Source: an uncultured Candidatus Binatia bacterium (GTDB taxonomy: Bacteria; Desulfobacterota; Binatia; UBA9968; JAJDTQ01). Taken from it: a stretch of DNA of 64,000 bases. Of the stretch, positions 19,288 through 63,225 are shown one piece after another. Position numbers and translations under genes: made by a program. The notes beneath the pieces were generated by a model, which saw only the letters and a program-made list of their open reading frames with translations, was not told the origin of the DNA and did no database searches. The first letter of the stretch is position 1; each line of letters starts with the position of its first letter. The stretch is taken from positions 3,947,665-4,011,664 of the forward strand of contig OZ253480.1 of NCBI GenBank assembly GCA_965261895.1, given 5' to 3'.

Positions 19288-19334
19288 TGAGAGAGTACCT
19301 GTTGGAAGAAAGCCGGCCACGTACGGATGAGGCA

Positions 19335-21623
19335 ATGAGTCGAAACGAAGACAGAACATGCCGGGAACTGATCGAGCCCGCCCTGGAAGAGGCCGGGTGG
19401 GAGTGGGACCGGCAGGTCGTGATCGGCCCTGGCCGCGTCAACCTCACCGGCGAGTCTATGTACGACTCGTCTCAGCAGATCATCGCTGACTACGTGCTGC
19501 GTCTCTGGCGTATGCCGCTCGCCATTCTTGAGGCCAAGGCAGAGGTGGAATCAGCGACCGATGGGATGCAGCAGGGCTCCCGGTATGCTGACCGTCTTCG
19601 GCTTCGATTCTCGATCGCGTCGAACGGGTGCGACTACATCCTCACTGACAACGAAACCGGCGAATACGAGTCGTTCGACACCCCACCCACACCTGGGGAC
19701 ATTCTCTCCCGTCTCGGGCGCAACATCGTTTGGGAAGAGTGGCGTCCGGTTTTTGAGGCTCCGTGGCACGAGGACCAAATTACTCGCAAGAAGGTCCGCC
19801 CCTACCAGGAGATGGCCATCTTCGAGACCCTTTATCGCTTCAGTCAAGGCGAAAAGCGGGTACTCCTGCTAATGGCCACGGGTACGGGCAAAACCTTCAC
19901 GGTCTTTCAGCTCGCATGGAAGCTCATGCGCGGGGACGTTCTCCGGAACAACCGCCTCCTCTTCCTCACCGATCGCAACAGCCTCAAGGACCAAGCCTAT
20001 CGGGCCTTCGCCGGTTTCACCTTGGACGAGCGCGTTGTTATCGACAAGGATCTGGTCAGCCGAGGGGAGCATCTCGTCGGAAAGATCTTCTTCGCCAACT
20101 ACCAGAATCTTAACGAGGAACTGAGTGGGAAAAAGCTCTACGAGCACTTCGATCCGGATTTCTTCGACTTGGTCGTCGTGGACGAGTGTCACCGTTCCGG
20201 CTTCGGCGACTGGTTTGGAGTCCTCGATCGCTTCAAGTCAGCATATCAGTTAGGCTTGACCGCCACCCCGCGGGAAATCGATCAGAGCCGTCATACCCTT
20301 ACCGAACTGGAACTCCGGCGTGACACTTACGAGTACTTCGGGGAGCCGAAGTACGTTTACTCACTGAAGCAGGCCATAGAAGACGGCTACCTCGTCCCTT
20401 ATCTCCTAGAGGAGCGCATCTCGAACCTGGATGAGGATGGCTACACCGGACCGGACGGCAAGCAATACACAACAAAGAACTTCGAACGCGACATTCGTCT
20501 GCCCGAGCGGACTCGCGTTATCGCGGAGGACCTTTGGTCCATTCTCGGGAAGTACGGGCTCCGGGACGAGAAGACCATCGTCTTCTGCGTCGACGACACG
20601 CATGCAGCATTCGTGGCGGCGGAGTTGCGTCGCCTTTCAGGTGATGGCAACTACGCCGCGCGGATTACCAGATCCGAGCGTAACTCACATCAGCTTGAGC
20701 GCAACTTCGCAGAAGTCGGTCGCGCCAAGCCACGGGTGGCGGTCACGGTCGATCTGTTGACCACCGGCTTTGACGCACCCGACGTCAAAAACATCGTCTT
20801 CGCTCGGCCCGTTAAGAGCGCCATCCTCTATAAACAGATGAAAGGCAGGGGAACCCGCCTTTGCGACGACATCGACAAGCGCTACTTCACCATTTTCGAC
20901 TATGCCGGCGCGAATCTGCTGGAGGATGCTGAGTTCGATGGTCATCCTGCAAACCTGCAAACAAGCCGCAAGCCGCAACCGCAGAAAAAGGCGCCCGAGG
21001 CTGTCAAGGAGAAACCCGTCGGAGAGGGTGTTTCGGTCTACATTTCTTCCACGGAGCGTTACGTCTGCTTGGCCGATGGCCGAAAGATCCCTTTTGATGA
21101 GTACCGGGAGCAGTCACGCAACGCCATTCGGAGCATTGCGCCAACCAACGTCGACGAACTCTTGGATATTTGGATCGACAAGAACACACGCCGGGACTTA
21201 CGAGGTGAGCTTGCAGACCGGGATATTCATGTCGCGGCGTTCCGGCACTACCTTGAACTTGATGGATCGGATGATGTCGACATTCTTGCCAAGGTAGGGT
21301 TTGAACTGGTGCGGGTTCCATCGCGTCACGATCGCGTTGTTCGTTTCTGGGATGCCGAGGAGAACTGGTTGCTCGTTCAACTCGGCGAGCATGCCGTCCC
21401 CGATGACAATCGCTTCAAGACGTACTTCTGGCAGACCGGCCTCGACCACTATTCGCTCTACGGCATCGACGATCTTGAGAAGGGCGGCACCTACAGCGCA
21501 CCTCAGTTCGTGGAACAGTTCGGAAGCTTCAGCCGGTTGCTGAGTCTCTATGGAGGAGCCGACAAGCTGAGGACGGATTTGGAGGAAGTGAAGCAACACC
21601 TTTACGTGCCGATGTTGGCGTAG
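19335..21623 (+). CDS. Restriction enzyme R subunit (HsdR-like: HSDR_N nuclease + SF2 helicase)
   Basis: Start MSRNEDRTCRELIEPALEEAGWEW preceded by GAGG. Helicase motif I MATGTGKTFT and motif II DECHRS. A longer ORF beginning at 19302 is possible. Confidence 0.75.
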   Translation: MSRNEDRTCRELIEPALEEAGWEWDRQVVIGPGRVNLTGESMYDSSQQIIADYVLRLWRMPLAILEAKAEVESATDGMQQGSRYADRLRLRFSIASNGCDYILTDNETGEYESFDTPPTPGDILSRLGRNIVWEEWRPVFEAPWHEDQITRKKVRPYQEMAIFETLYRFSQGEKRVLLLMATGTGKTFTVFQLAWKLMRGDVLRNNRLLFLTDRNSLKDQAYRAFAGFTLDERVVIDKDLVSRGEHLVGKIFFANYQNLNEELSGKKLYEHFDPDFFDLVVVDECHRSGFGDWFGVLDRFKSAYQLGLTATPREIDQSRHTLTELELRRDTYEYFGEPKYVYSLKQAIEDGYLVPYLLEERISNLDEDGYTGPDGKQYTTKNFERDIRLPERTRVIAEDLWSILGKYGLRDEKTIVFCVDDTHAAFVAAELRRLSGDGNYAARITRSERNSHQLERNFAEVGRAKPRVAVTVDLLTTGFDAPDVKNIVFARPVKSAILYKQMKGRGTRLCDDIDKRYFTIFDYAGANLLEDAEFDGHPANLQTSRKPQPQKKAPEAVKEKPVGEGVSVYISSTERYVCLADGRKIPFDEYREQSRNAIRSIAPTNVDELLDIWIDKNTRRDLRGELADRDIHVAAFRHYLELDGSDDVDILAKVGFELVRVPSRHDRVVRFWDAEENWLLVQLGEHAVPDDNRFKTYFWQTGLDHYSLYGIDDLEKGGTYSAPQFVEQFGSFSRLLSLYGGADKLRTDLEEVKQHLYVPMLA

Positions 21624-21633
21624 GAGAACACCC

Positions 21634-23163
21634 ATGGCGCAAAGTGAGGCAAGGAACGAAGGCAAGCAGTTGTCCAACGGCACGACTGAGCACCGCCGCC
21701 AGGAGGTACAACAGGCCATCAAGAGTGCCTGTGACCAACTCCGAGACGACGGTGTGGAACCGCGTAACTACGTGGAGCAGCTCGCTTGGTTGTTCTTCCT
21801 CAAGGCATTTGACGAAATGGAGAGCCGCCGCGAAGAAGAGGCAGCCTTTGACGGCTCGTCGTACCGGCGAAGACTCGACGGCGAGTATAGTTGGTCGAGT
21901 TGGTCATCGATGTCCAACCGACCCGACCAGATGCTGGAATTTGTTGACGGGAAGCTCTGGTCACACCTCAAGAGCTTCGGAGAAACCGAGCATACCCGGC
22001 AATTCGCAAACGACCCGGTGGCCGAGCGATTCCGCCGCATCTTCTCGACGGTTCGCAACCATTCCCGTCGCGGCGCGAGCTTCGCGCGGGTCACTCAACA
22101 AGCCAATCGTCTCCAATTTGGTGACGAGACGGACGTTATAGTCCTTTCGGAACTCTATGAGGGGCTTCTGAAGGATGTAGCTGCCGACTCTGCCGGCTAT
22201 GCTGGCGAATTCTACACGCAGCGTCACGTCATCCGAGCCATGGTGGATGTGGTCCATCCCAAAATCGGAGACCGCATCTACGACCCGTGCTTCGGAACGG
22301 CTGGTTTTCTTGTCGAGTCGGCGGAGTACATCCGGAAGACGGCGGGCACCCTTAGTGGCTCGAATCTCGACCGCCTCCAGGAAAAGACCTTCTACGGGAT
22401 TGAACAAAAGCCGTTGACCTATCTCTTGGGCACGATGAATATGCTGCTGCATCGTATCGAGGGTGCGAACCTCGAACTCGGGAACACGCTAGAGCTGCAT
22501 GCGACCAACGTCTCGGAGAAAGACCGCTACGATGTTATCCTCTCGAATCCACCCTACGGCGGAAAGATGGCCCGCGAGCTTCAGACCAATTTCACAATCC
22601 AATCGGGCTCCACCGAGATACTCTTCCTGCAGCACATCATGACGCACTTGGCCAAGGGTGGCCGTGCCGCAGCGATCATCCCCGAGGGAGTCCTGTTTCG
22701 TGGCGGTCCCGACGCCAGGGTCCGTGAACGACTCCTCCGCGAATTCGACGTTCACACGATCCTCTCGCTGCCGGCAGGATGTTTCCTGCCGTACACGGGC
22801 GTGAAAACGAATGTGCTCTTCTTCACCCGCCGCAAGGATGACCGAGGCACTGGGGACGTTTGGTACTATGAGCTCACCAACGACGGGTTTGACCTTAAGT
22901 CGACGCGGCGGCCGATCCAGGGAAACCAAATTCCAGACTTCCTCACTAAGTGGGAGAAGCGAGCGAAAGGAGAGAACTCCTGGTCGGTCTCCGCGAAGGA
23001 GATCGCCGAGCAGAACTGGGACCTATCTGCCCGTAATCCTCAACAAGGAGGAAATATCGGACACAAGCCCGCGCTGGAGTTGGTTCAGTCCATCAAGGCG
23101 AAGGAAGAGAGAGTGGTCGAGCTTCTTGACGAACTGCAGGAGTTGCTGGAGGGTACCCGATGA
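21634..23163 (+). CDS. N6-adenine DNA methyltransferase subunit (HsdM-like)
   Basis: 509 aa with the SAM motif DPCFGTAGFL and the catalytic motif LSNPPYGG. Confidence 0.8.
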   Translation: MAQSEARNEGKQLSNGTTEHRRQEVQQAIKSACDQLRDDGVEPRNYVEQLAWLFFLKAFDEMESRREEEAAFDGSSYRRRLDGEYSWSSWSSMSNRPDQMLEFVDGKLWSHLKSFGETEHTRQFANDPVAERFRRIFSTVRNHSRRGASFARVTQQANRLQFGDETDVIVLSELYEGLLKDVAADSAGYAGEFYTQRHVIRAMVDVVHPKIGDRIYDPCFGTAGFLVESAEYIRKTAGTLSGSNLDRLQEKTFYGIEQKPLTYLLGTMNMLLHRIEGANLELGNTLELHATNVSEKDRYDVILSNPPYGGKMARELQTNFTIQSGSTEILFLQHIMTHLAKGGRAAAIIPEGVLFRGGPDARVRERLLREFDVHTILSLPAGCFLPYTGVKTNVLFFTRRKDDRGTGDVWYYELTNDGFDLKSTRRPIQGNQIPDFLTKWEKRAKGENSWSVSAKEIAEQNWDLSARNPQQGGNIGHKPALELVQSIKAKEERVVELLDELQELLEGTR

Positions 23164-24371
23164 GTTGGCCCGTGGCCCGCTTGGGGGATGTAGCCCAAGT
23201 GAATCCAAGACGTCACAGCGGTCTACGGTCGCTAGCTGGAAATGTGGAGGTGACGTTTGTTCCGATGGCTGCTGTGGACGAGGAAACCGGCACGATCTCT
23301 TGTCGAGAGGTGAAGCCACTTGGCGACGTTCGGAGGGGGTTGACCGCCTTTGCAGAAGGCGATGTGATTTTCGCCAAAATTACACCTTGCATGCAAAACG
23401 GGAAGTCGGCCATTGCTCATGGGCTTGTCAATGGCCTTGGCTTCGGCTCCACGGAGTTTCATGTACTCCGCCCGGGTCCAGATGTTCTTCCGGAGTGGCT
23501 GTGGTACGTCGTTCGACAACGCTCCTTCCGCGAGGAGGCCCGACGACACTTCCGCGGCTCTGCTGGTCAGCAGCGCGTCCCAGCGAGCTTTATCGAGCAA
23601 CACATGATTCCCCTGCCTTCCATTGGGTTGCAGAGACGAATCGTTGGGCAGGTTCGGTGGGCATTGGTACGAGTGAGTGAGATCCAAGATCTCCGTCGGA
23701 AGTCGCTGGCAGAGGCAACTGCACTAGAGGAAGCTGTTTTCTCGGATTTTATTGTGGATTTCATGAAGAACGCCTACGTCTCTATCGTTTCCCTTGGCGG
23801 CATCCTGGTCCGTGCACAGTATGGGTCATCCTCGAAGGCCAATACTGATGGAGAGGGTATACCTATTCTGCGGATGGGAAACATCCAGAATGGACACTTG
23901 GATGTGAGCGACCTCAAGCACATCAGTCTTTCCGCGAAGGAACTGACCAAGTACCGACTCAGCGAAGGAGACATACTTTTCAATCGGACCAACTCACTCG
24001 AGCTAGTCGGAAAGTCAGCAACCTTCACCGCATTGAAGGGAGACTGGGTGTTCGCGTCGTACCTGATCCGCCTTGATGTCGACCGTCGCAAGGCCCTCCC
24101 GGAGTACGTGACGGCGGTCATCAACAATCGGATAGGGCGAGACTACGTCTATCGCACAGCGCGGCGTGCCATTGGAATGGTGAACATCAACGCCAAGCAG
24201 ATTCAACGGCTGGAATTGCCGCTTCCCCCGTTGGCGGATCAGGAGTGGCTGGTCGGGCAAATGCGACGGGCTAAGACCGCAAGTGACAACATCCGAAGGG
24301 ATCTTGGCATGGAGGCTATAGAGGCCCTTCCTGATGCTATTCTCCACAAGGCCTTTGCGGGGGAGCTCTAA
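23160..24371 (+). CDS. Specificity subunit (HsdS-like), two TRDs
   Basis: 403 aa with ATGA overlap to hsdM. Conserved S-subunit repeats are present (LPLPSIGLQRRIV; LPLPPLADQEWLVGQM). Confidence 0.75.
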   Translation: MSWPVARLGDVAQVNPRRHSGLRSLAGNVEVTFVPMAAVDEETGTISCREVKPLGDVRRGLTAFAEGDVIFAKITPCMQNGKSAIAHGLVNGLGFGSTEFHVLRPGPDVLPEWLWYVVRQRSFREEARRHFRGSAGQQRVPASFIEQHMIPLPSIGLQRRIVGQVRWALVRVSEIQDLRRKSLAEATALEEAVFSDFIVDFMKNAYVSIVSLGGILVRAQYGSSSKANTDGEGIPILRMGNIQNGHLDVSDLKHISLSAKELTKYRLSEGDILFNRTNSLELVGKSATFTALKGDWVFASYLIRLDVDRRKALPEYVTAVINNRIGRDYVYRTARRAIGMVNINAKQIQRLELPLPPLADQEWLVGQMRRAKTASDNIRRDLGMEAIEALPDAILHKAFAGEL

Positions 24372-24403
24372 ACGGTGCGGCTTGCAATAGAAGTCGTCTA
24401 CAC

Positions 24404-27400
24404 ATGAGCCAGCTTGAACTTACGTCTCAAGTGTCCGAGCTATGGGACCGTCTCAGTGAGATGCGCGGCCAAGGGATTCGCAACCGCCCGTTCGAGTCTG
24501 TCATCGCTCCCCTTGCGGCCCTACTCTTGCTTTGTTGGGCTGAGCACCTGGACACCGAACAGGAAGCCGAGGCTGCCTTCGACGGTCGCGACCACCTGTC
24601 TGCTCTGCCTCGGGATCAGCACTGGTCCGCGTGGTGCGAGCTTCGCGGTGAGAGGCTTGTTGGCGCCCTTCAGAGAGGGGTTTTCCCCGCCCTGCGTCAT
24701 GCATCCAGTGGCACCCTCGGCCAGTCCTTGCAGCGGCTTGCGACCGTCTTTGAGGGCCTCACCCGCGAACCTCCCGAGGTGGTCGAGATGCTCGTGCAAT
24801 GGGGCCAGTTATTCGATCTAGAGACTGCCTGTGGCAAGCAGGCAGCGGCAGACGCCCTGGCGGCTCTTTTGGACCAGGCTACCGAGAAGTCCGCGAAATT
24901 CGGAGGGGAGTTTACAACGCCCCGATCTGTGGTCCAGATGATGGTTGACCTTCTCGCTCCCAATCCAGGTGAACGCATCTACGATCCATGTTTCGGTACC
25001 GGAGGTTTGCTCGCCACCGCGGCAAAGAGACTCCGTGAGAAGGCGTTGAAGATGCCCCCGAAGGTATGGACAGATGTCCGGGAGCGAAGCGTGTTCGGGG
25101 TAGAACTCAACCCGTTCGCCTACAGCATCGGGCTTGCACGAGTGGTTTTGGAAGGTATAGAGCAACCCGGACTCGAACTTGGGGACGTTTTGGAACGCCC
25201 TTTGGTCAAAGACCGGTACTCCGAGGGATTCGATTGCATTTTGGCCGTACCTCCTTGGGGCCGCCGCGTGCGCCAGAAGGTGGCAGCCCAGTTTCAAGTA
25301 TCGTCAACTTACGTTGAGACGCTCTTTCTCCAACACGTGATGGCTTCTCTTCGGCCGGGTGGCCGCGCCGTCATTGCCCTTCCGGAAGGTGTCCTCTTCC
25401 GGGCCGGCGCCGACCGGATGGTTCGCAAGGAGTTGCTCTCGGACTTCTGCGTCGAGGGGGTAGTGTCGCTGCCGGCTGGGGCTTTCCATCCGTACACAGG
25501 GATCAAGACGAGTTTGGTCCTCTTCCGACGTGAACAAGTCAAGGATGCTGTTCGGTTCATGCAGGTTGAGGAGTGGCCCTCTGTCCGACCGGGAGATGGG
25601 CTCAGCCGTGAGAAGGCGATTTCAGTGGCGCGCAGCATCGCTGAGGAATTCAAGAACGGCACACCAAACGGTAGCCTCTGGGAAAGCCCGATCAAGGAGC
25701 TTGCGACCAGGGACTGGGAGTTGGTCGCCAAACGGACAGGTGAGGAAACCCTATCGCGCTCGCTGCAGGTTCTGAAGGAGGCGGATGCCGAGGTCCCGGT
25801 ATGGCGGCTCAACGAGGTGGCGGAGATATTCCCCGGTGTTTCGTACGGGAAGTCGGTGACCACACAGTGCGCGGACGACCCAGCGGTGTTCGCCGGGCTC
25901 GTCCGTGTTGCAGATGTGAAAGGCACCGGTCCACAAGACCCCTCCCTCTTCCTGATCGCAGAGGGTAGCGAACGAGTGCAGTCGAAGCACTGGTTACGCG
26001 GGGGAGACATCCTCCTCACTGTCTCCGGAACCATCGGAAAGTTAGGGGTTGTGTCCGAGTCGGCGGGTACGGTCGGCTCGGTGGCCGCCAAGAGTATGGC
26101 TGTAATACGTCCCAGGAAACAGGTCTCTCCACAGTTTTTGGCGAGCCTCCTAGCCTCCCCTGTATACCAGGAGTGGATCCGCGGTCATGCGCACGGGGCG
26201 ACCATTCAGCATCTCTCCGTTCGAACGCTAGCGCATCTTCGCATTCCGGTGCCCGAAGTTCCGATCCAAGAACGCGTCGTCCAACAGGTGGGCGTCGAGC
26301 GAGACGGGCCCCTCGCTGTCCTCGCGCGGATCCTGACAGGTGAAAGCGAGGATCCAGTTGTCAATTGGCTCGAAACCTCTTCCGATGTGCGCAAGCTGCG
26401 GCAATCGGGTCACACAGTCGATCCTATTGTGGTTCTGGAGCGAATCGCCCATTCGGTTGGGAACCTACGAGATCAGGTGGCGCAAGCTCAGGTCCACGGT
26501 GTGCCCGACCTTGCTTACTGGTTGTTGGAGTTCGCAGAGGCGGTGAACCCGCTAAAGGGTTTGAAGCACGTGCCTTGGGGTGCCGGGCGCATGGCGATAC
26601 TGGACAGTGCACAACTTCGCCTAGGACGGTGGTTGTCGATTCTCGAAAAGTCATCGCTGCCCGTGCTTGACGCTGCGAGGGATCTGACGGGAGGGATTTC
26701 CCGGATCGTCCGGGCCGAATTGGATTCGATCATGGAAGATGTGAAGCTGGTGCCCGGCGTTGAACCGAGCGCGGTAGTAGCGGGGACGGAAAACGAGGTC
26801 CAAGTACGTGTGACGAATCAGTCGCCTCTTGCGCTCCGCAATGTCTCGGTCTCAACTGTACCCGACATCGGTGGGCGCCGCTTCGATTACCTCGCTGAGG
26901 GTGAGACGCTCAGTTTCACGGCGAAGATTCCCGCACTCGGAAAGACAAGCCCTTTTCCTTTCGAGCTTCGATGGCGAGCGGACCGCCTTGACGGACGGCC
27001 AGTATCCGGTGAATTGCCGCTGGCCGTAGATGTTCGCTCGACGCGCGAAGCCGTCCACCTCTCGGAGCTCGGGGCCAGCCCGTACATCGTCGGAAACCCG
27101 ATCGATCGAGAGGAGATGTTCTTTGGCCGTCGAGATCTCATCGACAAGATTAGGCGACAGCTCTCCACAAGTCACAGTGCCAACGTCATTCTTCTGGAAG
27201 GCAATCGTAGAACGGGCAAGACCTCCATTCTCAAGCGCCTACAGGCTCCCCACGTGCTCCCAGGTTGGATTGTCGTAAACTGCTCTTTCCAAGGTGGCGA
27301 GGGCCACGAAAGCAAGGCTGGTTTGCCCACCAACGAGGTTTTCAGACTCATGGCGCGCGACATCGGCCAGGCGGTGGATGACGCCGGGCACCAAGTATCG

Positions 27401-28330
27401 CTTCCGGACATGGTTCTCCCAGATTTGAAGAGGCGGTTCAAGGTAGCGTTTGTGAAGGCTCTAGCGACGGCATTCTCCGGTCCGCAACCCTTCCAGGTGT
27501 TCGAGCTTTACATACAGGCTGTCTTGGAGGCTGCCAGTCCGCGACGCCTCCTGCTCATGCTTGACGAATTTGACAAGCTCCAGGAGGGCATCGACACCGG
27601 CGTCACGAGCCCGCAAGTTCCGGAAAACCTCCGCTACCTGCTTCACAACTACCAAGGGCTGTCAGCCATACTCACTGGCTCTCGCCGTCTCAAGCGACTT
27701 CGGGAGGAGTACTGGTCGGCGCTCTTCGGGTTTGGGCACAGAGTCTCCGTGAGTGAACTCCCGTTGGGGGATGCGCGACTCCTTGTGAAGCAGCCGGTCG
27801 AGGGGCGGCTTACGTACGTGCCCGAGGCGACAGACCGCGTGGTCGAACTGTGTTCGCGACAACCCTTCCTGATCCAGTCATTGTGCAACCAGATCTTCGA
27901 GCGAACTGCCCTCTCGGACGAGCGAACGGTGACGGTGGGCGCGGTAGACGCCGCTGCCACGGAGATGGTTCAGGACAACGAGCACTTCCGTACGCTTTGG
28001 GGTTACGCCGGGACCGAACGCAAACGTTTCGTTCTGTCGTTGTGTCAGCGGCTAAAGGAGGGACCAGATCCCATCACACTAAGTTTGTTGGAGGCGAAGC
28101 TTGAGGAGTGTGGCATTGCCCTCCCTTATGGCGAACGTTTGGGAGATGATCTGGAGTATCTCCGTGAACTCGAACTTATCGAACTTGAGGAGACTACGCG
28201 GGGCCCGGCATATACGCTCGCTGTTCCGTTGATGGCCGACTGGATACGGCGGAACATCGACTTCGAGGATCAGCGCCAGCAGGTCGTTCGGGAAATTGAA
28301 GAAAAGGTGACCACGGAGGAAGAACAGTGA
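24404..28330 (+). CDS. Multidomain fusion protein: HsdM-like MTase (non-canonical motif IV AVPPW) + single S-type TRD + ORC/Arch-type AAA+ ATPase with a winged-helix C-terminus
   Basis: 1308 aa. Residues 1-390 have the MTase motif I IYDPCFGTGGL, but the motif IV position reads ILAVPPWGRR (gta = Val) where N/D/S is expected. Residues ~400-640 are TRD-like (LRGGDILLTVSGTIGKLG...IQHLSVRTLAHLRIPVPEVPIQERV). Residues ~870-1308 carry FFGRRDLIDKIRRQL, Walker A GNRRTGKTS and Walker B LLLMLDEFD. Confidence 0.65.
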   Translation: MSQLELTSQVSELWDRLSEMRGQGIRNRPFESVIAPLAALLLLCWAEHLDTEQEAEAAFDGRDHLSALPRDQHWSAWCELRGERLVGALQRGVFPALRHASSGTLGQSLQRLATVFEGLTREPPEVVEMLVQWGQLFDLETACGKQAAADALAALLDQATEKSAKFGGEFTTPRSVVQMMVDLLAPNPGERIYDPCFGTGGLLATAAKRLREKALKMPPKVWTDVRERSVFGVELNPFAYSIGLARVVLEGIEQPGLELGDVLERPLVKDRYSEGFDCILAVPPWGRRVRQKVAAQFQVSSTYVETLFLQHVMASLRPGGRAVIALPEGVLFRAGADRMVRKELLSDFCVEGVVSLPAGAFHPYTGIKTSLVLFRREQVKDAVRFMQVEEWPSVRPGDGLSREKAISVARSIAEEFKNGTPNGSLWESPIKELATRDWELVAKRTGEETLSRSLQVLKEADAEVPVWRLNEVAEIFPGVSYGKSVTTQCADDPAVFAGLVRVADVKGTGPQDPSLFLIAEGSERVQSKHWLRGGDILLTVSGTIGKLGVVSESAGTVGSVAAKSMAVIRPRKQVSPQFLASLLASPVYQEWIRGHAHGATIQHLSVRTLAHLRIPVPEVPIQERVVQQVGVERDGPLAVLARILTGESEDPVVNWLETSSDVRKLRQSGHTVDPIVVLERIAHSVGNLRDQVAQAQVHGVPDLAYWLLEFAEAVNPLKGLKHVPWGAGRMAILDSAQLRLGRWLSILEKSSLPVLDAARDLTGGISRIVRAELDSIMEDVKLVPGVEPSAVVAGTENEVQVRVTNQSPLALRNVSVSTVPDIGGRRFDYLAEGETLSFTAKIPALGKTSPFPFELRWRADRLDGRPVSGELPLAVDVRSTREAVHLSELGASPYIVGNPIDREEMFFGRRDLIDKIRRQLSTSHSANVILLEGNRRTGKTSILKRLQAPHVLPGWIVVNCSFQGGEGHESKAGLPTNEVFRLMARDIGQAVDDAGHQVSLPDMVLPDLKRRFKVAFVKALATAFSGPQPFQVFELYIQAVLEAASPRRLLLMLDEFDKLQEGIDTGVTSPQVPENLRYLLHNYQGLSAILTGSRRLKRLREEYWSALFGFGHRVSVSELPLGDARLLVKQPVEGRLTYVPEATDRVVELCSRQPFLIQSLCNQIFERTALSDERTVTVGAVDAAATEMVQDNEHFRTLWGYAGTERKRFVLSLCQRLKEGPDPITLSLLEAKLEECGIALPYGERLGDDLEYLRELELIELEETTRGPAYTLAVPLMADWIRRNIDFEDQRQQVVREIEEKVTTEEEQ

Positions 28331-29916
28331 GCGAAAGTCCCTACCAAGTCCTTGGCCTAGGAGTCCCGGCAATGCTCGGGCGCGAGCGGCTTCTCGAACG
28401 GCTACTTCGCCACCTGACCAAGCCAACGCCAGACCACATGTGCGTCGTAGGCCCTCCGCTGTTCGGGAAATCGGTCTTCCTCAATCACGCTGCTGCCTAC
28501 TTCAAGGAGGCAGGTGATCACTACGTCACCTCCCTCTACTGGGACCTCCGGCATAGCACTCCAGGAACCGACGACCAGTTCCGCCGGCGTTTCGCGGAGC
28601 GAGTCAGGGATGCCCTCCAACCGGTAGAACCTGGCCTTGCCAAGGACCTTGACCCGGAGGACGAAGCGCTTGCCGATCTTCTTCCTCTCGTCTTCGATGA
28701 GTTGGATCGAAAGGGAATCCGCTTCCTCGCCGTGCTCGACGGGTTCGATCACGTTCTTGAAGGGAGTGGCATTACGAGAAATCTGTGGGATTACATGAGG
28801 ACGCTTTGCGAGAAAACCAGCCTTCGACTCGCAACTGGAAGCCGGAGCAGACTCCGTGAGCTTTGTAAGAGCGAGGACTCCCGGACATCAGATTTCTGGG
28901 AGATCTTCTACCACACCCCGTTGGAGGTCGGGTGTTTTGAAGAGCACGACTGGAACGGTTTCCTCGATCCCTTCAAATCGCGGGGGATCACGTTCGACGG
29001 ATCCGCTCTCAAAGAGATTGCCAACTGGACTGGCGGTGTCCCGGTTCTGGCAGCGGCTTTGGCCGAGCGGCTACTGGACGGGGTTCTCGACGGCGCATCG
29101 CTCTCCAAATCCCACGTGGACAGGATCGCACGGGACGTGGCTGAGGAACGACGAGATCTACTCGCGGCGCTTTGGGATCATTGTCAAATCGACCTGCAGT
29201 CTGATCTGGTCGCCCTCGCCCACAGCGATCTCCGATCGTCCGAGGTGTCCGATGAACGGAAGCGCCGGCTCGAACTGCGGGGGTTCGCCCGCTCGTCCGG
29301 AACTCGGCTCCGAGGTTCGTGTCGTTTGATGGTCCAATATGCCCAGCAGCGAGGGGGCGAGGTGGAGAATCTGCGGCGGCTATTCGGCGACGCGGAGCTT
29401 TTCGAGAGCAATATTCGAAGTCTCCTTGAGATCCGTTTGGCGCAGATACCCATCGTCGATTCGGAGCTGGTGGGATATGTCCAATACGCGATCCGGGATC
29501 TGCAGCCGAACCCCACCAACACCGTGGTTTGGGCCCGAAGCATCGCTGAAAGAGGTCTGGATCTGATCTGGAAGGCCGAGCTTCCGGTGAGCAGGTCTCT
29601 GCCGGACGCCTGGAAATTTGTCGGAGTGAAGTTTGACGAACGGGGCCAGTTTCCTACGAGACGTGGTCCGCAGTGTGGAATCCTCCGTCTCATCACGGGT
29701 ACGGAAGACCACGACCCGGTCGCGAAGTTCGTAACTAGGCCGACGTACTTGCTTGTAAACCACATTCACTCTGTCGGTGACTTCGGACAGCACAAGGGAG
29801 ACACCGCCGTGTCAGTGTCGTTCGCCGCTGCGTTTTGTCTGTCAGCAATTGGCCTCTGCGAAAGCCTTGCCAGGGAACTGACTACGTCAGCGAGCACGCT
29901 GATCCCGGATGGCTGA
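28327..29916 (+). CDS. Second ORC/Arch-type AAA+ ATPase with an uncharacterised C-terminal domain
   Basis: The GTG start overlaps the upstream TGA. N-terminal LGRERLLERLLRHL, Walker A GPPLFGKS, Walker B FLAVLDGFD. The ~200-aa C-terminal region was not recognised. Confidence 0.55.
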   Translation: MSESPYQVLGLGVPAMLGRERLLERLLRHLTKPTPDHMCVVGPPLFGKSVFLNHAAAYFKEAGDHYVTSLYWDLRHSTPGTDDQFRRRFAERVRDALQPVEPGLAKDLDPEDEALADLLPLVFDELDRKGIRFLAVLDGFDHVLEGSGITRNLWDYMRTLCEKTSLRLATGSRSRLRELCKSEDSRTSDFWEIFYHTPLEVGCFEEHDWNGFLDPFKSRGITFDGSALKEIANWTGGVPVLAAALAERLLDGVLDGASLSKSHVDRIARDVAEERRDLLAALWDHCQIDLQSDLVALAHSDLRSSEVSDERKRRLELRGFARSSGTRLRGSCRLMVQYAQQRGGEVENLRRLFGDAELFESNIRSLLEIRLAQIPIVDSELVGYVQYAIRDLQPNPTNTVVWARSIAERGLDLIWKAELPVSRSLPDAWKFVGVKFDERGQFPTRRGPQCGILRLITGTEDHDPVAKFVTRPTYLLVNHIHSVGDFGQHKGDTAVSVSFAAAFCLSAIGLCESLARELTTSASTLIPDG

Positions 29917-30008
29917 TAGCCGCACCGACGATGACGCGCACCATTGTCGAGAGTAACTGATGAGCCTCTACACTAGGTACATCTTTAAGCGGTGCCCAAA
30001 CGGGGCAC

Positions 30009-30647
30009 ATGCTGTATTGGGAGGAAGGTAACTCCGCCGAGGATGACACTTTTTGCTGGAAATGCGGGGAGTCCTATCTGCTGAACTGCCCCTCGTGTAA
30101 CCACCAACTCGGAAATGCGTTTGATACCATGAAGTCGGCGTTTGATGGGAAGCCGCGGAAGGTGCCTAACAAACCGGCATTCTGTGGCAAGTGCGGCAAG
30201 CCCTATCCCTGGACGTTAGCTGAGCATCAGAGAATTGAGGACGCTGGATTTTGGTCGCTGGTGCATCCCATGGTCATCAAGCTGGCAAGGCCTCGGTTTG
30301 AGACAGGTCACTATGCGGATGCGGTGGAAGCCGCGTTCAAGGGACTGAACAGCAACGTAAAAGAACTTTTTCTGACCGCGAAAGGGCGAGAACTCGACGG
30401 CCCGGACCTTATGAGGAAGGCGTTACGGACCGATGACGCCGTGCTCGTCTTAGGTGACCTTACAACAGAGTCTGGCCGCAACATTCAAGATGGTTACTCT
30501 CATATTTTTGCGGGTGCCATGCAGGCAATCCGCAATCCCAGTGCCCATGCAAACACGGAGATTGGTTCGAATCGAGCATGCCACCAATTGATGCTTGCAA
30601 GCCTTCTTTTCCGTCAAATTGATGAAAGAAGGAAAGGCGATAGGTAG
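30009..30647 (+). CDS. Double zinc-ribbon + TIGR02391 (Hypoth_Ymh) HEPN-family Abi-like protein
   Basis: N-terminal Cys pairs CWKCG...CPSCNH...CGKCGKPYPW. The C-terminal Ymh domain carries the HEPN Rx4-6H motif (IRNPSAHANTEI). A GTGCCCaaacGGGCAC hairpin sits just upstream of the ATG. Confidence 0.55.
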   Translation: MLYWEEGNSAEDDTFCWKCGESYLLNCPSCNHQLGNAFDTMKSAFDGKPRKVPNKPAFCGKCGKPYPWTLAEHQRIEDAGFWSLVHPMVIKLARPRFETGHYADAVEAAFKGLNSNVKELFLTAKGRELDGPDLMRKALRTDDAVLVLGDLTTESGRNIQDGYSHIFAGAMQAIRNPSAHANTEIGSNRACHQLMLASLLFRQIDERRKGDR

Positions 30648-30649
30648 AT

Positions 30650-32047
30650 ATGCTCCCGGCCTCGTCGAGACCGGCAGGGTTCGTTCATCTGATCAAAGTC
30701 CTCGTCACCGGCGCCACCGGCTACATCGGCGGCAGGTTGGCTCCGCGCCTCCTTGCCGACGGCCATCGCATACGCGTGCTGGCACGTAGCGCGGCGCGGG
30801 TGCGCTCGCGGTCCTGGGCGGAGCGGGTGGATGTCGTCGAGGGCGACGCGCTGGAACGCGAAACGTTGGCGCAAGCCCTGGCCGGGGTGGACTGCGCCTA
30901 CTACCTGATCCACAGCATGGGCAGCGGCGCGAGGTTCCACGAGCTGGACTTGGAGGCGGCGCGGCTTTTCGGGCGGGTGGCCAGGGAAGCCGGCGTCCGC
31001 CGGATCGTTTATCTGGGAGGGCTGGGAGACCCGAAGGCCGACCTGTCGCAGCACTTGCGCTCCAGGCAGGAGACGGGGCGGGCGCTTCGCGACGGCGGGG
31101 TGCCGGTAACGGAGTTCAGGGCGGCGGTGATCGTGGGGTCCGGCAGCATCTCTTTCGAGATGATCCGCTATCTGGTGGAGCGGCTCCCGGTGATGGTCTG
31201 TCCCCGGTGGGTGTATTCGCGGGTCCAGCCCATCGCGGTGAACGACGTGCTGGACTATCTGGCGGCGGTCCTGACCAACGCCGCCTGCGGCGACAAGGTC
31301 ATCGAGATCGGCGGGCAGGGGGTCACCACCTACAGGGGGATGATGCTGGACTATGCCAGGGCCAGGGGGTTGAAGCGCTGGCTGGTGCCGGTGCCGGTGC
31401 TCACGCCGCGCCTGTCGTCGTATTGGGTGCACTGGATTACGCCGATCCCTTCCAGGGTGAGCGGACCGCTGATCGACGGGCTTCGGAACGAAGTGGTGGT
31501 GACCGACAATCTGGCCCTGGAGCTGTTCCCGGGGATCGAGTCCCGGGCCTACACCGCGGCCATCGCAGAGGTGATCGAGGACCTGGAGCAGGGCCGTGTC
31601 GAGACCGCCTGGAGCGACGCCCACGGCGGGTCCGACACGCCGGACTCCCTCTCCCGCGTGGAGTCCCACGAAGGGATGATCTTCGAGCGTCGCACACGAC
31701 AGGTGGCCGCGCCTGCCCGGGAGGTGTACCGGGTGTTCACCGGCATCGGCGGCGAGCGGGGATGGTTTTATGGCGACTGGATGTGGCGGGTCCGGGGCAT
31801 GGTCGACCGCCTGCTGGGGGGCGCGGGGCTGCGCCGGGGACGCCGGCATCCCGACGAGTTGCGCGTCGGCGACGCGCTGGATTTCTGGCGGGTGGAGGCC
31901 CTGGAGCCGGACCGGCTGGTCCGGCTCAGGGCGGAGATGAAGCTGCCGGGCCGCGCCTGGCTCCAGTTCCGGGTATGTCAACGGACTCTTTCGCCTTCGG
32001 CGGCTGTAAGAGCAACTTCGCCAGTTCTTCTGGCGCGATGTTCATAG
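30650..32047 (+). CDS. SDR-family NAD(P)-binding epimerase/dehydratase-like oxidoreductase with a DUF2867-like C-terminal domain
   Basis: Rossmann motif VLVTGATGYIGGRL; 465 aa. Its 5' end is the sequence duplicated at 14645-14770 and 15672-15796. Confidence 0.75.
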   Translation: MLPASSRPAGFVHLIKVLVTGATGYIGGRLAPRLLADGHRIRVLARSAARVRSRSWAERVDVVEGDALERETLAQALAGVDCAYYLIHSMGSGARFHELDLEAARLFGRVAREAGVRRIVYLGGLGDPKADLSQHLRSRQETGRALRDGGVPVTEFRAAVIVGSGSISFEMIRYLVERLPVMVCPRWVYSRVQPIAVNDVLDYLAAVLTNAACGDKVIEIGGQGVTTYRGMMLDYARARGLKRWLVPVPVLTPRLSSYWVHWITPIPSRVSGPLIDGLRNEVVVTDNLALELFPGIESRAYTAAIAEVIEDLEQGRVETAWSDAHGGSDTPDSLSRVESHEGMIFERRTRQVAAPAREVYRVFTGIGGERGWFYGDWMWRVRGMVDRLLGGAGLRRGRRHPDELRVGDALDFWRVEALEPDRLVRLRAEMKLPGRAWLQFRVCQRTLSPSAAVRATSPVLLARCS

Positions 32048-35970: not shown

Positions 35971-36065
35971 CAAAAGATCGCCAAATCTCCCCAATATTGG
36001 GGTGGCTAGCCAGCTCGCGACGCGTTTAAACTACCATGGCGCGTGAGCGCCGCCGGGAGGAGACC
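35971..36065 (+). promoter_or_regulatory. Conserved ~100-bp upstream element, copy a (palindrome TCCCCAATATTGGGG + box GCGCGTGAGCGCCGCCGGGAG), upstream of giant adhesin 1
   Basis: It shares GTCAAA..CGCCAAATCTCCCCAATATTGGGGA...(35-37 nt)...TCAGCGCCGCCGGGAG with the copies at 45586, 46595, 52741 and 54131. Confidence 0.6.
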
Positions 36066-36449
36066 CGGCGAGAACCGTTGCGCGGTCTGTTCGACCCCAC
36101 GGGGCATCGGCTTTCATTCGGATTATTGCAGCTACGGGAGGCTAGGGATGACCCTTTTTCGCTTACCTCGGACAACACGTTTTCTGCGCCGGATACCTGT
36201 GTCAAAGGCAACGGATCCAAGCTGGCGGGAGACCGGATCTCATTCGTGAAGCCAAGGCGACCCCAAGATCCTACAGCGTCAGGCGACGGGCGTTGTCGAC
36301 CGCTTGCCAACGTGTCTGTGGGCTCGTCGGATCGCGTTCCAATTTCCTTCCTCCCCAGGCGCCATCCCGTTTTCAGACCAGCGATGCCCTGCCGACGCAT
36401 GTGCATCGTTCTCATCTCTCTTACGCGAATTCACCGGGACCCTTCGACC

Positions 36450-39400
36450 ATGCATCATCTCGTTGTGCCTTGCACCGTACGCTGTCTCGCAATCATGCTG
36501 TTCTCCGCGTTCGTCGCGTTGCTTGCCACGCCCGCCTACGCGCAGACCGAGGTTCCGAGCAACTGGCCCCTGAAACCTCCGGGACTGAATGTGGGCGACG
36601 AATTTCGCCTGGTGTTCATGGGGAAAGTTTCGCGGAATGCAGATTCGACGGACGTCGCGGTCTATGACGCGCATGTGCAAGGCCGTATCGCCGGCATCGG
36701 CCACGCGGAAATCAAGGCGTATTCGAGCCATTTCAAGGTTCTGGGTTCCACCTCCACGGTGAATGCGCGAATGCACACCGGAACGACCGGAACCGGCGGC
36801 GTGCCGATCTATTGGCTGAACGGCCCGAAAGTCGCGGACAACTACGCCGACTTCTACGACGGCACTTGGGACGACAAGGACGGTGCGACACTGGAGGATG
36901 GCACGTCGCTTAGCTCCGGTCGCAAGGACCAATTCATTTGCACCGGCACCAACGATGACGGGACGACGGCGTCACAGCCTCTCGGCGCAGCCACATGTGC
37001 CGGAACGAAGATCAATATCTCGGGGAACACCCTGAGCGGGGCGACGGGTGCGAGCAGCGCAGCATCGCGCTACCTGGTGCTCTCCGGCGTCTTCCGGGTC
37101 GGCAACTTCACCGCCACCATCCCGACGGTCGAGAGCGTGCGCGTCACCTCGGATCCCGGCAGCGACGGCGAATATGTCAAGGACGACGCGATCAAGGTCA
37201 CGGTGACGTTTTCGGAAGCGGTCGCCGTTACTGGAACGCCCAAAATCAAACTGAGACTCTCCGAAGAGGCGACGCCGAAGAGACCCGGTTACGTCGCTGC
37301 CGAAAGCACGGCGACGGCGCTGGTGTTCTCCTACACGGTGAAGGCGACCGACTATTCCCATGACGGGGTCATCATCCCCAGGAACGGGATCGTCCTCAGC
37401 GGCGGCGCGACGATCAAGAACCAGGCCGGCACCGTGGACGCGGACCTGGATCACGCCAAGAAAGATTCGCTGAGCGCCCACAAGGTGCACGTCCGGCCAT
37501 TGGTCACCGGCGTAACCGTGGCTTCGACGCCGGCGGCCAACGGCATCTACCGGACCGGCGAGACCATCCAGATCGACCTGACCTTCGACAAGGCGGTGGC
37601 TGTCTTCACCGACTTCGGCACGCCCGAAGTCTGGTTCGTCATGGATGGCTCGAATCCGGCGCGCCGCGAGGCTGCCTACACGACGACCGTCGGAGACCAT
37701 GTCGTGCGCTTCGATTATGCGGTCCAGGCCGCGGACCTGGACGACGACGGCATATTGTTCATGAACAACGCGATTGTCTGGAACGACGGGGCGATTATCA
37801 GAAAGGCGCATGGTGACGTTGACGACCTCGATGAATTGAAGACCCTGAGGGTGGACGAAAACGGTGGGAGTACCTCCACGTACCCCCAGACCGGCCACAG
37901 GGTGAATGCGGCGGTGTCGACGGACGCGACGCTGAGCGACCTGGATCTGGAGGACAGCAACGGCGCCGCGATCGAGCTGACCCCGTCGACGTTCGCGTCG
38001 ACGACGACGTCCTACACGGCGTCGGTGGCCTACGCGGTGGACGAGATCACCATCGTCCCGACGGTGATCGAGATCTATGCGACGGTGGCGTATTTGGACG
38101 CGAGCGACACGGCGCTCACGGACGCGGACGCGAACAAGAACGGCTTCCAGACGCCGCTCGCGGCGGGCGCGAACACGATCAAGGTGAAGGTGACGGCGGA
38201 CGACGACTTCACCACCCTGACCTACACGATCACGGTAACGCGGGGCGCCGCCTCCACCGACGCGACGCTGAGTTCCCTGGCGTTCACGGACGCGGCCAAC
38301 GGCAACACCATTTCTCTGACTCCGGGCGGGAACCGCACCTACACGACGTCTGTGATCAGCAGCGTGGACGAAATCACCGTCCTCCCGACGGTGAACGAGA
38401 GCAACGCGACGGTCGCGTACCTGAACGCGTCGGACACGGCGCTCACGGACGCGGACGTGGCGAAGGACGATTTCCAGGTGGTGCTCGCGGTCGGCGCGAA
38501 CACGATCAAGGTGAAGGTGACGGCCGAGGACGGGGATACCATCGAGACCTACACGGTGGTGGTGACCCGGGCTGCTTTGGTGCCGGGCCAGGTGACGGGG
38601 GTCGAGGTAACGCCGGGCACTGGCCGGTTGAAGGTCGACTGGAACGCCGTGACCAACGCCGACGGCTACAAAGTGCAGTGGAAATCGGGTACCGAGACGT
38701 TCACCAACGCGGCTGCGAACAGCCGGGAGGCGACGGTCACGTCGGGTTCGACGACGAGCCATACGATCACGGGCCTGACCAACGGCACCGCCTACGACGT
38801 ACAGGTGATCGCGACGCGGACCAACGCCGCCGACGAGACGCCCTCGGCGCCGGCATCGGGCACGCCGGGCGCGGCGCCGGGCCAGGTGACGGGGGTCGAG
38901 GTAACGCCGGGCACCGGCCGGTTGAAGGTCGACTGGGACGCCGTGACCAACGCCGATGGTTACAAGGTGCAGTGGAAATCGGGCGCGGAGACCTTCGCCG
39001 ATGCGGCTGCGAACAGCCGGGAGGCGACGGTCACGTCGGGCTCGACGACGCGCCACACGATCACGGGCCTGACCAACGGTACCGCCTATGACGTGCAGGT
39101 CATCGCCACCCGGACCAACGCGGACGACGGGACGCCCTCGGCGCCGGCGACGGACACGCCGTCGCAGACGGTGCGAATCACGGGCGTGGCGTTCACGAAC
39201 GTCCCTTCGAACAACGTCTATAACCTCGGCGACACGATCGAGGTGAGCATCACGTTCAATGCGGCGGTTGAGGTAACCGGAACCCCGAAGGTGCAAATGT
39301 ATTTCGTCGACAAGCATAAATTCTACGAATACGCCAACTACGACGCTGCCTTCAGCACGGATACGGTGCTCGTCTTCAAGCGCCTCGTGACCGGCGACGA

Positions 39401-42400
39401 CGACAACGAGTCGACCGTTCGAGTCATTCCTGACGGTCTCAAATTGAACGGCGGGACAATTCGGATCAAGGGGACCACGGTAAATGCCGACATCGCCCAC
39501 GCCGGCACGCAGACGGACCCGGACATCAACACGCGGTGGCTCGAGGGCATCGCGGTGACCTCGGCACCCGCCGTGCCAGAGACCGTGACCGGGAACCCTG
39601 TCTACGGCCCGGGCGAGAAGATTCAATTCAAGGTGACTTTCAAGAATGCAGTCGATGTCGATCAGACGGACGGCGCACTGAAGCTGAAATTTCGCTCGGG
39701 CAGCGCCACGGCAACCTACGCGGCGGACTATGAAAGCGGCACCGGCACGAAAGATCTGGTGTTCGCCTGGACCGTGCCGGCCAACATGCCGGATGACGGC
39801 GCCGGCCTCGTTGTTCCGACGAACGTTCACGGGCACGGGCACGGGTTCGATACCAGTCATGGACTGGTGCTGAACGGCGGGACGATCAAGAGCAGCGGCG
39901 GGATCGCGGTGAATATCCGCCACGGGCAGCACGATACGGATTCGCGGGTGGATACGACCGCGCCGGTTCTTGCGGCCGGCGCCGACGGTGCGACGGTGGA
40001 CGGCACGGCGCTTGTGCTCACATTCCAGAACCCGGATGACGGCAATTCGGCGGACCACCTCGACGAGGCCTCGGCGCCGGCGGACTTTGCCGTCACGGTC
40101 GCGGGATCGGCGCGGACCGTGTCGAGCGTGAATGTGAACGGCGCCACCGTCACCCTCACCCTCGCTTCGCCCGCGGGCCATGCCCAGGCGGTCACGCTGG
40201 GCTACACGCCGGGAACGAGCAGGATTCGGGACCGGTGGGGCAACGAGGCGGTCCAGATCGCCGGCCGGTCGGTGCGCAACGACAGCCCCGAGCCGTCGCT
40301 GTCGATCGAACCGGTGACGGTGCACGAAAGCGACGGCACGGCCACCTTCACGGTGACGCTGAGCGTCCCGAGCGCAGAGCAGGTTACGGTCGACTACGCG
40401 ACCGGGGACGGCACTGCGACGGCGGGGGCGGATTACACAGCGGCGAACGGCACCCTCACCTTTGCGCCGGGAGAAACGACCAAGCCCATCAGCGTCACGA
40501 TCGCCGATGACACTGTCGACGAGGATGGCGAGACCTTTTCGGTAACGCTCAGCAACGCGGTGAACGCGTCCATCGGTCAAGCGGCGGCGGCGGGAACCAT
40601 CACGGACGATGACCAGACGGCGTTATTTCTGTCGGGCCAAGTGACGGAGTTGATGGCCACGGCGACGGTGAACAAGGTCACGCTGACCTGGACGGCACCG
40701 TCCGGCACGATCCTCGGCTACCGGATCGAGGCGTCCTACGACGGCGGCACGGTCTGGGCCGAGGTAGAAGACAATACGAACGGGACCAGCACCGCCTACG
40801 CGCACGGTTCGGGGCTGATGGCCGGCGAGACCCGCGACTACCGGGTATCGGCAATCACCGGTGATGGCGCCGGCCCGCCGTCCGTCGCGGCCGCAGCCAA
40901 CGCTTCGGACACCGTCAACGGGCTGACGGCCACCGGTGTGTCTATCCAGGACACGCCGGACGGGATGGCAACGATCGATCTCTGTTGGAAACCGTCCGGT
41001 GTAGCGGTGAGCGAATTGAAGGATTTCGCGATCAGGGAGAGAAACGTCCATCCCTCATATCCCGCGGAGTGGAGCGATCAACACTGGTCTCCGTCGGGCA
41101 AGTCGAGGGCTGCCGATTGCGAGGCGGGAAGCATCGGCTTCCGGGTCTCCGGGAGGATTGCCCCGAATATCCGCTACGCCTTTCAGATCCGGGCCAGATA
41201 CGGGATGCGCTGGGCGCTCTCGAACGACGCCGACGCGGTATCGGTCGATGCGGCCCTGGATCTTCGCGCCGACGTGTTGACGGGCAATTCCAGCCTGTCG
41301 GGGGATACCGACGTGCCCGCCACCGTTTGCCCCGCCTATGACGACCCGGCGACGCCTGAGGCCGACGCCGGTTCATTCATCGTCAATATCGGGTTTTCCA
41401 CGCGGCCCGCGGTCATGCTCAATTACGAAGCGGTGACCGGATTCGTTCTGGACAATGACGTGACGCTCGAGAACGCCACCGCGGAGCTCATCGACCGGCC
41501 GTATGGCGCGCAGCTGGGCTATCGGGTCCGGATCACCCCTACTACCTGGGGGCAACCCGTGGCGGTGAGCGTGCCGGCGGGCGTCGTGACCCACCCTGCT
41601 TCGTCGGTCAGGAACCAGGCTTCCAACGTGTTCCGCCGCAACACCTCCGCCTCGACCGATTGCGACACGGGCAGCGATATAACGGTCTACCCGCCGGCCG
41701 TTAGGCGCACCGCAATTCTCGACGATGACGACCGCAGCGGCATGTGGTCGACAGGCGAGCGTGTCCGCGCGACGCTGGAATTCACCGAATCGGTGACGGT
41801 GACGACGGACAACGGTATCCCGACCGTTTCCCTGAGCATCGACGGCAAGACGGTGCAAGCCTCCTACGCAGAGGGGACAGGTGGCGACACGCTTGCGTTC
41901 GAACATGTCGTGACGGCCGAGCAGAGCCCGTTCAACAGTGCCAGTCTTGTGGCAAACAGCCTGTCGTTGAACGGCGGCGCGATCGCGAGCCTCGACGGAC
42001 CGGCGGCCACGCTGGCGCATCCGGGGGCTGTGAAACAGAAGAAACTGGGCACCGGGCCGAAGAAACCGGCTACCGAGCCCAAATTGACGGCCAATTGGGT
42101 GAAATTTCCGCCCGGCCATTCTGGAGACGGCAGGAAGTTCACGGTCCGCGTGAAATTCAGCGATCCCGTGACTATCAACGTGAGGTACTTCCGCGACTAC
42201 GCTCTTTCGGTGACCGGCGGTGTTGTCGACAAACTGTGGCGTGTCAAGGGAAGCGACGGCGAACCACGCAAGGACCTGTGGGCGATCAGGGTGATGCCGG
42301 CATCGCAGCAGCCGCTGTCATTGTCACTGGCGGCCATACAGGACTGCAGCCAGCATGGTGCGATCTGCACGGCGGATGGCACGCCGCTCTCCAACGCGGC

Positions 42401-63172: not shown

Positions 63173-63225
63173 AGCGTAGCGAAGCGAAGTCGAAGGACGC
63201 CATCCACGGCTCCAAGCTTCCCCGG

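Follow-up and report, generated by a model that had tools for sequence, protein, structure and literature searches.

The open reading frame (ORF) at positions 30009..30647 of the stretch analysed here, 64,000 nucleotides of contig OZ253480.1 from an uncultured Candidatus Binatia bacterium (the whole of which we call the window), belongs to a known family of predicted HEPN defence RNases, of which it is a new representative that carries a frameshift. Its predicted product joins an N-terminal zinc ribbon to a C-terminal Ymh HEPN domain. The reading that we favour, and hold to be fairly probable on the basis of homology and of analogy with characterised systems, is that the gene encodes a stand-alone abortive-infection-type RNase rather than the effector of the adjoining ATPases, and that it is represented in the window by a truncated or mis-sequenced copy.

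Results

The ORF runs on the + strand from ATG to TAG over 212 codons plus the stop, and its start corresponds to an internal methionine of its homologues. A preliminary description of the sequence had placed its C-terminus in the Ymh/TIGR02391 family, and profile searches bear this out: PF09509 (Hypoth_Ymh) matches amino acids 85-204 with 100.2 bits (E 9e-29; cut-off 25), and the NCBIfam model TIGR02391 matches amino acids 85-206 with 70.3 bits (cut-off 39.45). The domain so delimited (30261..30626, + strand, amino acids 85-206) is predicted to be a five-helix bundle. It contains the RNPSAH sequence (30531..30548, + strand, amino acids 175-180) that had been singled out earlier as an Rx4-6H motif, and which we likewise read as a putative HEPN catalytic motif of the Rx4H form (R175, H180). 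Residues R175, N176, P177, H180 and N182 are invariant both in 21 members of the subfamily (alignment A1) and in 41 broader Ymh proteins (alignment A5).

Ahead of the HEPN domain lies a DUF2321-type zinc-ribbon module (30033..30224, + strand, amino acids 9-72), recognised by PF10083 with 43.6 bits (cut-off 24). The match covers positions 22-83 of the 157-position profile, that is, the N-terminal module and not the full length; in the intact homologue P0001 it extends over positions 6-85. The double-zinc-ribbon profile DZR gave only a weak, sub-threshold match on this region. Four cysteine pairs forming a double zinc ribbon had originally been proposed for this part of the protein. The ribbon stands, but the ORF holds only three CxxC pairs (C16/C19, C27/C30 and C59/C62), and the remaining pair of ligands, present in all homologues, is a C-x3-H knuckle that in the window is encoded upstream and out of frame. 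The protein is thus predicted to comprise two domains, a DUF2321-type double zinc ribbon followed by a Ymh/TIGR02391 HEPN domain with an RNPxAHxN motif, and the zinc ligands of its intact form would be C-x3-H, CxxC, CxxC and CxxC. An AlphaFold2 (AF2) model of full-length P0001 (pLDDT 90.1, pTM 0.79) has a beta-rich ribbon plus helices, and a model of the window's HEPN domain alone (pLDDT 92.6) has five helices. No solved structure of a relative was found by sequence, and the domain search found no NTPase domain in the 212- or 228-amino-acid protein.

It is at the 5' end that the copy in the window departs from its relatives. In the closest homologues, at 91, 83, 80 and 75% identity, the protein has 227-239 amino acids and starts 16 codons earlier, with the N-terminus M-S-x-Y-T-R-Y-x-F-K-R-C-P-N-G-H-M-L-Y-W, and every homologue examined encodes within this 16-codon extension the invariant Cys-x3-His knuckle (RCPNGH). 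The ancestral segment can still be read in the window as an ATG at 29960 plus 15 codons (MSLYTRYIFKRCPNG; 29960..30004, + strand), at the place where homologues start in frame. It encodes the first beta-strand and the cysteine of the first knuckle, but the remainder of the gene is now in another frame. The break is at a GGGG run (30002..30005, + strand), which alignment A2 and a five-way alignment identify as a one-nucleotide insertion: L001, L002, L003 and L005 have GGG or GGT at this site, and the extra base is absent from L069 too. Because the window carries GGGG where its relatives carry GGG or GGT, the frame opened at 29960 meets a stop after 23 codons. In an alignment with L001, L002, L003 and L069, this insertion is the only window-specific indel across 29960-32047. 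The remaining 212 codons are intact, no invariant residue is missing from them, and an undamaged relative matches them at 91% identity; the 45 nucleotides upstream are still nearly identical to L001.

A natural short isoform was considered and rejected. Database calls for three homologues (P0006, P0011 and P0022) also begin at the internal methionine, yet the DNA of all three carries the extension in frame. Programmed frameshifting was considered as well. A CCCAAAC sequence upstream conforms to a slippery site for -1 shifting, but only a +1 shift would bring back the frame. Such a +1 slip could in principle occur on GGGG, yet no stimulator accompanies it and it would be specific to the window, since the intact relatives have GGG or GGT; we regard programmed frameshifting as unlikely. 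As the insertion in the G run uncouples the first 16 codons and the knuckle from the rest of the gene, the window copy is either a homopolymer sequencing error of an intact 228-amino-acid gene or a recently truncated, probably impaired allele. Several similar indels appear in the alignment of L001, whose contig name gives a coverage of 5x. Because the gene ancestrally begins at 29960, its true distance from the stop of the upstream ATPase gene (29916) is 43 base pairs (bp), not 92.

The same lesion accounts for a supposed hairpin immediately 5' of the ATG. This palindrome, GTGCCCaaacgGGGCAC (29992..30008, + strand), reads GTGCCC-aaacG-GGGCAC, one G more than in the version first given (GTGCCCaaacGGGCAC), and consists of the codons for C-P-N-G-H. 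Its stem pairs at 6/6 positions only in the two closest relatives; pairing falls to 5/6 in four others, through uncompensated wobble changes, and to 2-4/6 in distant homologues, while the Cys and His of the knuckle stay invariant. A regulatory hairpin was rejected, since the segment is coding in all homologues and its pairing decays without compensating changes. Judging from these alignments, the palindrome is coding sequence and neither a regulatory element nor a conserved RNA structure. The hairpin and the four cysteine pairs of the preliminary description are both misread consequences of the frameshift.

Upstream of the gene lie two ATPase genes, for which it had been put forward as the effector. 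One (24404-28330, + strand) encodes a 1308-amino-acid fusion of an N6-methyltransferase (MTase), one TRD (S domain) and an AAA_16 ATPase, and the other (28327-29916, + strand) a 529-amino-acid AAA_16/STAND-like ATPase. We collected homologues of the 529-amino-acid protein and compared 56 genome loci with 10-kb flanks, drawn from Planctomycetota, Latescibacterota, Acidobacteriota, Gemmatimonadota, Gammaproteobacteria, Spirochaetia, cyanobacteria and others. In 48 of the 56 the gene immediately 5' is the MTase-S-ATPase fusion, and in at least 14 of these EcoAI-type hsdR-hsdM(-hsdS) genes precede the pair. When a Ymh-subfamily profile was run on all ORFs of these loci, none of them had a match (0/56); nor did the 56 loci have a conserved third gene downstream of the pair, the next gene varying in size and strand. 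The MTase-S-ATPase and 529-amino-acid genes therefore form a conserved two-gene module ending at the 529-amino-acid gene, and because no ATPase locus carries a Ymh gene and the downstream gene is variable, the Ymh gene lies outside this module.

The two genes of the module (24404-29916) overlap by 4 bp, and the module is kept across at least eight phyla. No PADLOC or NCBIfam model matched the 529-amino-acid ATPase. The pair is a possible undescribed defence module linked to restriction-modification (R-M). It is widely conserved, matches no known defence model and is the more unusual object of the region. The C-terminal ~145 amino acids of the 529-amino-acid protein (29407-29913) hold many invariant residues, notably Cys, His and Trp, for example H479, G484, F486, G487, H489, C504 and C511. 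A built-in HEPN-like effector in this segment was considered, but there was no Pfam match and hhalign against the Ymh profile returned a probability of 0.1%, so that nothing can be claimed.

The zinc-ribbon-Ymh gene itself is found in varied surroundings. The arrangement of the window recurs in L002 (83% identity to the window protein), and L001 (91%), whose contig is cut within the ATPase gene, keeps the 3' end of that gene upstream and agrees with the window that far; adjacency of the ATPase and Ymh genes is confined to these two close relatives. In a sister lineage (L003, L004 and L069; 80%) the Ymh gene is still followed by the same SDR gene, but the ATPase pair is absent and a different type I R-M system and an EcsC gene lie upstream. 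The nucleotide homology of L003 and L004 to the window begins exactly at 29961. L069 has hsdR-hsdS-(AlbA_2/Fic-like)-hsdM-EcsC upstream, with HsdM and HsdS 28-35% identical to those of the window, and no counterpart of the EcsC gene upstream in L004 was found in the window. In L005 (75%) the gene follows a type IIG/ISP enzyme and stands beside a PDC-M31A-type ATPase, T5orf172 and a Gp49/HTH pair, and the nucleotide match to the window is limited to the gene itself (29972-30674, 79%). Among more distant homologues, that of L152 (63%) precedes an HNH gene, that of L006 (54%) lies between putAbiC and a zinc-ribbon-DUF4145 gene, that of L074 (46%) between TIR and HNH genes, that of L012 (45%) after an integrase and close to zeta and HicB genes, and that of L075 (44%) beside sulphur-transport genes.

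A census of 148 nearest-neighbour ORFs of non-redundant Ymh-domain loci, compared with Pfam, found no family more than four times. Scattered defence genes (AlbA_2, DNA MTases, SIR2, HNH, GT4-conflict, Type ISP) occurred among housekeeping ones, and apart from that of L002 no neighbour in the census was an AAA_16 protein. The guanine plus cytosine (G+C) content of the Ymh gene is 52.8%, against 57-59% for the R-M and ATPase genes, 68.7% for the SDR gene and 62% for the window. Because its contexts vary, no partner recurs, its G+C content is low and the L005 match is limited to the gene, we interpret the zinc-ribbon-Ymh gene as an autonomous, horizontally mobile single-gene module without an obligate partner, which tends to land in defence islands. 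In the lineage of the window it sits beside the core SDR gene, at the edge of a swappable R-M/defence island and at a hotspot for the exchange of R-M cassettes.

The two domains are also found apart. The domain fused N-terminally to Ymh varies between proteins, DnaJ-type CXXCXGXG fingers being one example, and the DUF2321 zinc ribbon is followed elsewhere by the canonical DUF2321 C-terminus or by a DpnII-MboI restriction-endonuclease-like domain. The occurrence of each in varied fusions supports a sensor-plus-effector design, and suggests that the DUF2321 ribbon is a swappable module placed ahead of nuclease effectors. Fusions of the DUF2321 zinc-ribbon N-module to the DpnII-MboI-like domain are seen in P0250 and P0264. 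In L006, putAbiC (8196-9266) is followed by the DUF2321-Ymh gene and then by a gene for a 233-amino-acid zinc-ribbon plus DUF4145 protein (10784-11482) with a RAZR-like architecture, so that two zinc-ribbon-HEPN genes stand side by side.

The genes listed from 16607 to 32047 all lie on the + strand. Upstream of the ATPase pair are genes for an EcoAI-type HsdR (19302-21623), HsdM (21634-23163) and HsdS (23160-24371), preceded by those for a RES-domain protein of 339 amino acids (16607-17626) and an RtcR-like CARF regulator (17760-19271). The latter is a CARF-AAA-HTH sigma-54 activator (PADLOC RtcR_PspF2, E 3e-199). These two genes (16607-19271) stand immediately 5' of hsdR and extend the defence or stress island. 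On the other side, as had been reported from the outset, the Ymh gene ends 2 bp before the next start: its TAG (30645-30647) is followed by the ATG at 30650 of an SDR/NmrA-DUF2867 gene (30650-32047, + strand). This gene is intact in the window and is split by indels or a 222-bp deletion in L001 (1162-2661) and L002 (10723-12016), which indicates indel noise or decay in those relatives. Further downstream, about 27 kb (~33985-61190) are absent from the syntenic L002, which joins 33984 to 61190. This segment, a probable insertion or variable region, holds giant ORFs at 36036-44240 (2734 amino acids) and, overlapping each other, at 54240-58079 (- strand) and 54588-59642 (+ strand). A tandem repeat at 62611-63173 has eight copies of a 70-bp unit with 97% matches, and a single copy of this unit is present in L002 and L003.

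Discussion

How might such a protein act? By analogy with RAZR (PD-T7-4) and with general HEPN biology, the likeliest mechanism is one in which HEPN domains would form a latent dimer or oligomer and the zinc-ribbon module would serve as a sensor or positioning domain answering an infection cue. Activation would then lead to cleavage of RNA, be it tRNA, rRNA or mRNA, and in turn to translation arrest and abortive infection.

Several observations weigh against the favoured reading of a mobile, stand-alone defence RNase. A Foldseek search of the PDB returned nothing significant; the highest TM-scores (0.39-0.47) belonged to 1wwp, 7ae8 and 1wol, all HEPN proteins, at E>1, with AbiA also among the best, and the HEPN fold accordingly rests on the published profile analysis and on the motif. 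In the literature searched we found no characterised DUF2321-Ymh member, and no characterised Ymh protein outside PD-lambda-3, for which reason RNase activity and a role in defence are what we infer. Direct evidence for carriage on known mobile elements is thin: 50,697 phage records contained no homologue, and 72,556 plasmids contained no full-length one, their 55 matches covering the HEPN domain only (31-36% identity among the 15 matches listed). Some homologues lie among housekeeping genes, as in L075. The 2-bp spacing to the SDR gene is kept in all close relatives and is unexplained, and the position of the gene directly 3' of an R-M system in three related lineages makes a functional tie to R-M conceivable.

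The explanation that comes nearest to the one we favour is that the window copy is a decaying pseudogene, in which the frameshift is real and the product, lacking one zinc knuckle, is non-functional. Whatever the function of the protein, we regard this as a serious possibility, though a somewhat doubtful one. In its favour, toxic effectors often acquire inactivating mutations, the insertion was seen in the window only, and the lost segment holds an invariant Cys and His together with the first beta-strand of the ribbon. However, the lesion is single; the other 212 codons and the 45 nucleotides upstream are as well preserved as described above, and the internal ATG could still yield a product. 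A one-base gain in a G homopolymer is moreover a classic assembly error, and several indels of this kind occur in related assemblies. Far less probable, and in our view the least credible of the alternatives, is a housekeeping role in RNA processing or regulation coupled to the downstream SDR/DUF2867 gene in one operon. The 2-bp junction, kept in L001, L002, L003, L004 and L069, would fit such a role, but the linkage is confined to this close lineage, the SDR gene being absent beside L005 and all more distant homologues. The two genes also differ by 16 points of G+C, and the other contexts of the family are defence genes or mobile elements.

The remaining alternatives tie the protein to its upstream neighbours. 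That it is the RNase effector of the 1308- and 529-amino-acid pair, in the manner of the R-M-coupled nucleases PrrC and RloC, was the original proposal, and several facts speak for it. The genes are on one strand, only 43 bp lie between the ATPase stop and the ancestral ATG, neither a convincing terminator nor a convincing promoter lies in this gap, L002 has the same gene order (as does L001 as far as its contig reaches), and paraMORC-Ymh fusions have been proposed as PrrC/RloC analogues (PMC3710099). Yet the pair keeps its own partner in 48 of 56 loci and has a Ymh gene within 10 kb in none; L003, L004 and L069 keep the Ymh gene without the pair; an AAA_16 neighbour turned up in the Ymh census in L002 alone; and the G+C content of the gene differs from that of the pair. 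As a conserved system this arrangement is largely refuted by the comparison of loci, and we consider it very improbable even as a co-option peculiar to the lineage of the window, for which the comparison offers no support. A looser version, in which the protein is a PrrC-like guard of R-M in general, held latent by, or monitoring, whichever restriction complex is encoded upstream and firing upon phage anti-restriction, appears to us unlikely but deserves more weight. Immediately 5' of each of three related Ymh genes (75-100% identity) is a different R-M system, namely EcoAI-type type I (window, L002), another type I with the divergent HsdM and HsdS mentioned above (L069), and type IIG/ISP (L005). 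The family has been noted 'in operon with R-M' (PMC3710099), and on enterobacterial plasmids Ymh genes lie between 'restriction endonuclease' genes. Against this, most sampled Ymh loci have no R-M gene as nearest neighbour (two N6_Mtase, two N6_N4_Mtase and one Type_ISP_C among the 148 ORFs), one zinc ribbon recognising three unrelated R-M enzymes is hard to picture, and a defence-island hotspot beside the SDR gene explains the co-location equally well. According to a more specific speculation, to which we give slightly less credence still, the double zinc ribbon would dock on whichever R-M complex is encoded upstream, and the HEPN RNase would be unleashed once a phage disables that complex, which in the lineage of the window may include the MTase-S-ATPase/STAND-like ATPase module. 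Such docking would explain why three different R-M cassettes lie directly 5' of near-identical Ymh genes.

For annotation, these findings mean that the gene should be flagged as frameshifted, that the 'hairpin' should not be labelled a regulatory element, and that gene and ATPase pair should be kept apart.

Among known systems, the closest frame of reference is the Ymh family itself. The survey of Anantharaman et al. (2013, PMC3710099) counts Ymh (PF09509) among the HEPN families, with a conserved Rx4-6H motif and the R-M association noted above, and describes Ymh solos as well as fusions to paraMORC, AbiJ-NTD1 and AbiTii. Like these proteins, the one described here well exceeds the curated cut-offs, keeps Rx4H, and belongs among small proteins with variable N-termini that are often found near R-M genes. 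Unlike them, it carries a DUF2321 zinc ribbon, a fusion that is not in the list of the 2013 survey (PMC3710099). With DUF2321 (PF10083) proteins, which are ~160 amino acids long, it has in common, in its intact form, the N-terminal zinc-ribbon module of C-x3-H and three CxxC; where they continue into the canonical C-terminal half (profile positions 86-157), it has the Ymh domain instead.

In the anticodon nucleases PrrC and RloC a HEPN-type catalytic domain is encoded alongside type I R-M genes and serves as a back-up to restriction. They differ from the Ymh protein in having their own ABC-type ATPase fused to a HEPN domain of a different family. The ATPases that neighbour the Ymh gene in the window are not conserved partners of it, and its adjacency to R-M genes recurs in close relatives only.

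By sequence, the closest experimentally validated defence protein is subunit B of PD-lambda-3, a system reportedly described by Vassallo et al. in 2022. The PADLOC profile PD-Lambda-3_B matches amino acids 83-209 (E 6e-16; profile positions 140-265 of 270), so that the likeness is confined to the HEPN domain and to the C-terminal 125 of the 270 profile positions. An Argonaute-associated HEPN profile (Aga_HEPN) also matches this domain (E 6e-9). PD-lambda-3 acts by abortive infection (PMC13190303) and is a multi-gene system containing a PD-(D/E)XK nuclease domain (PMC10952713); the profiles of its partners matched none of the genes neighbouring the Ymh gene of the window.

In design, the nearest counterpart is RAZR, in which one polypeptide carries a Cys4 zinc ribbon at its N-terminus and a DUF4145 HEPN RNase at its C-terminus (PMC13017515). 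Specificity is set by the zinc-finger domain, which binds ring-forming phage proteins, and the assembled protein cleaves single-stranded RNA and stops translation (PMC13017515). Both place a zinc ribbon ahead of a HEPN domain within one protein of ~200-230 amino acids, with no partner gene; RAZR, which acts by abortive infection, often adjoins an integrase, as does the L012 homologue of the Ymh protein. They differ in that the HEPN domain of RAZR is DUF4145 (PF13643) rather than Ymh and its ribbon a single Cys4 rather than a DUF2321 double ribbon; the window protein has no match to PF13643, and none to the PD-T7-4 profile even at E<=1. The likeness is one of analogy and not of membership, and by that analogy the Ymh protein may work like RAZR. 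If active, it would represent an experimentally untouched branch of HEPN defence RNases, in which Ymh is combined with the DUF2321 double zinc ribbon. Such a protein would provide a parallel to the mechanism of RAZR, solved only recently, and could show whether the sensing of phage assemblies by zinc ribbons is a general design.

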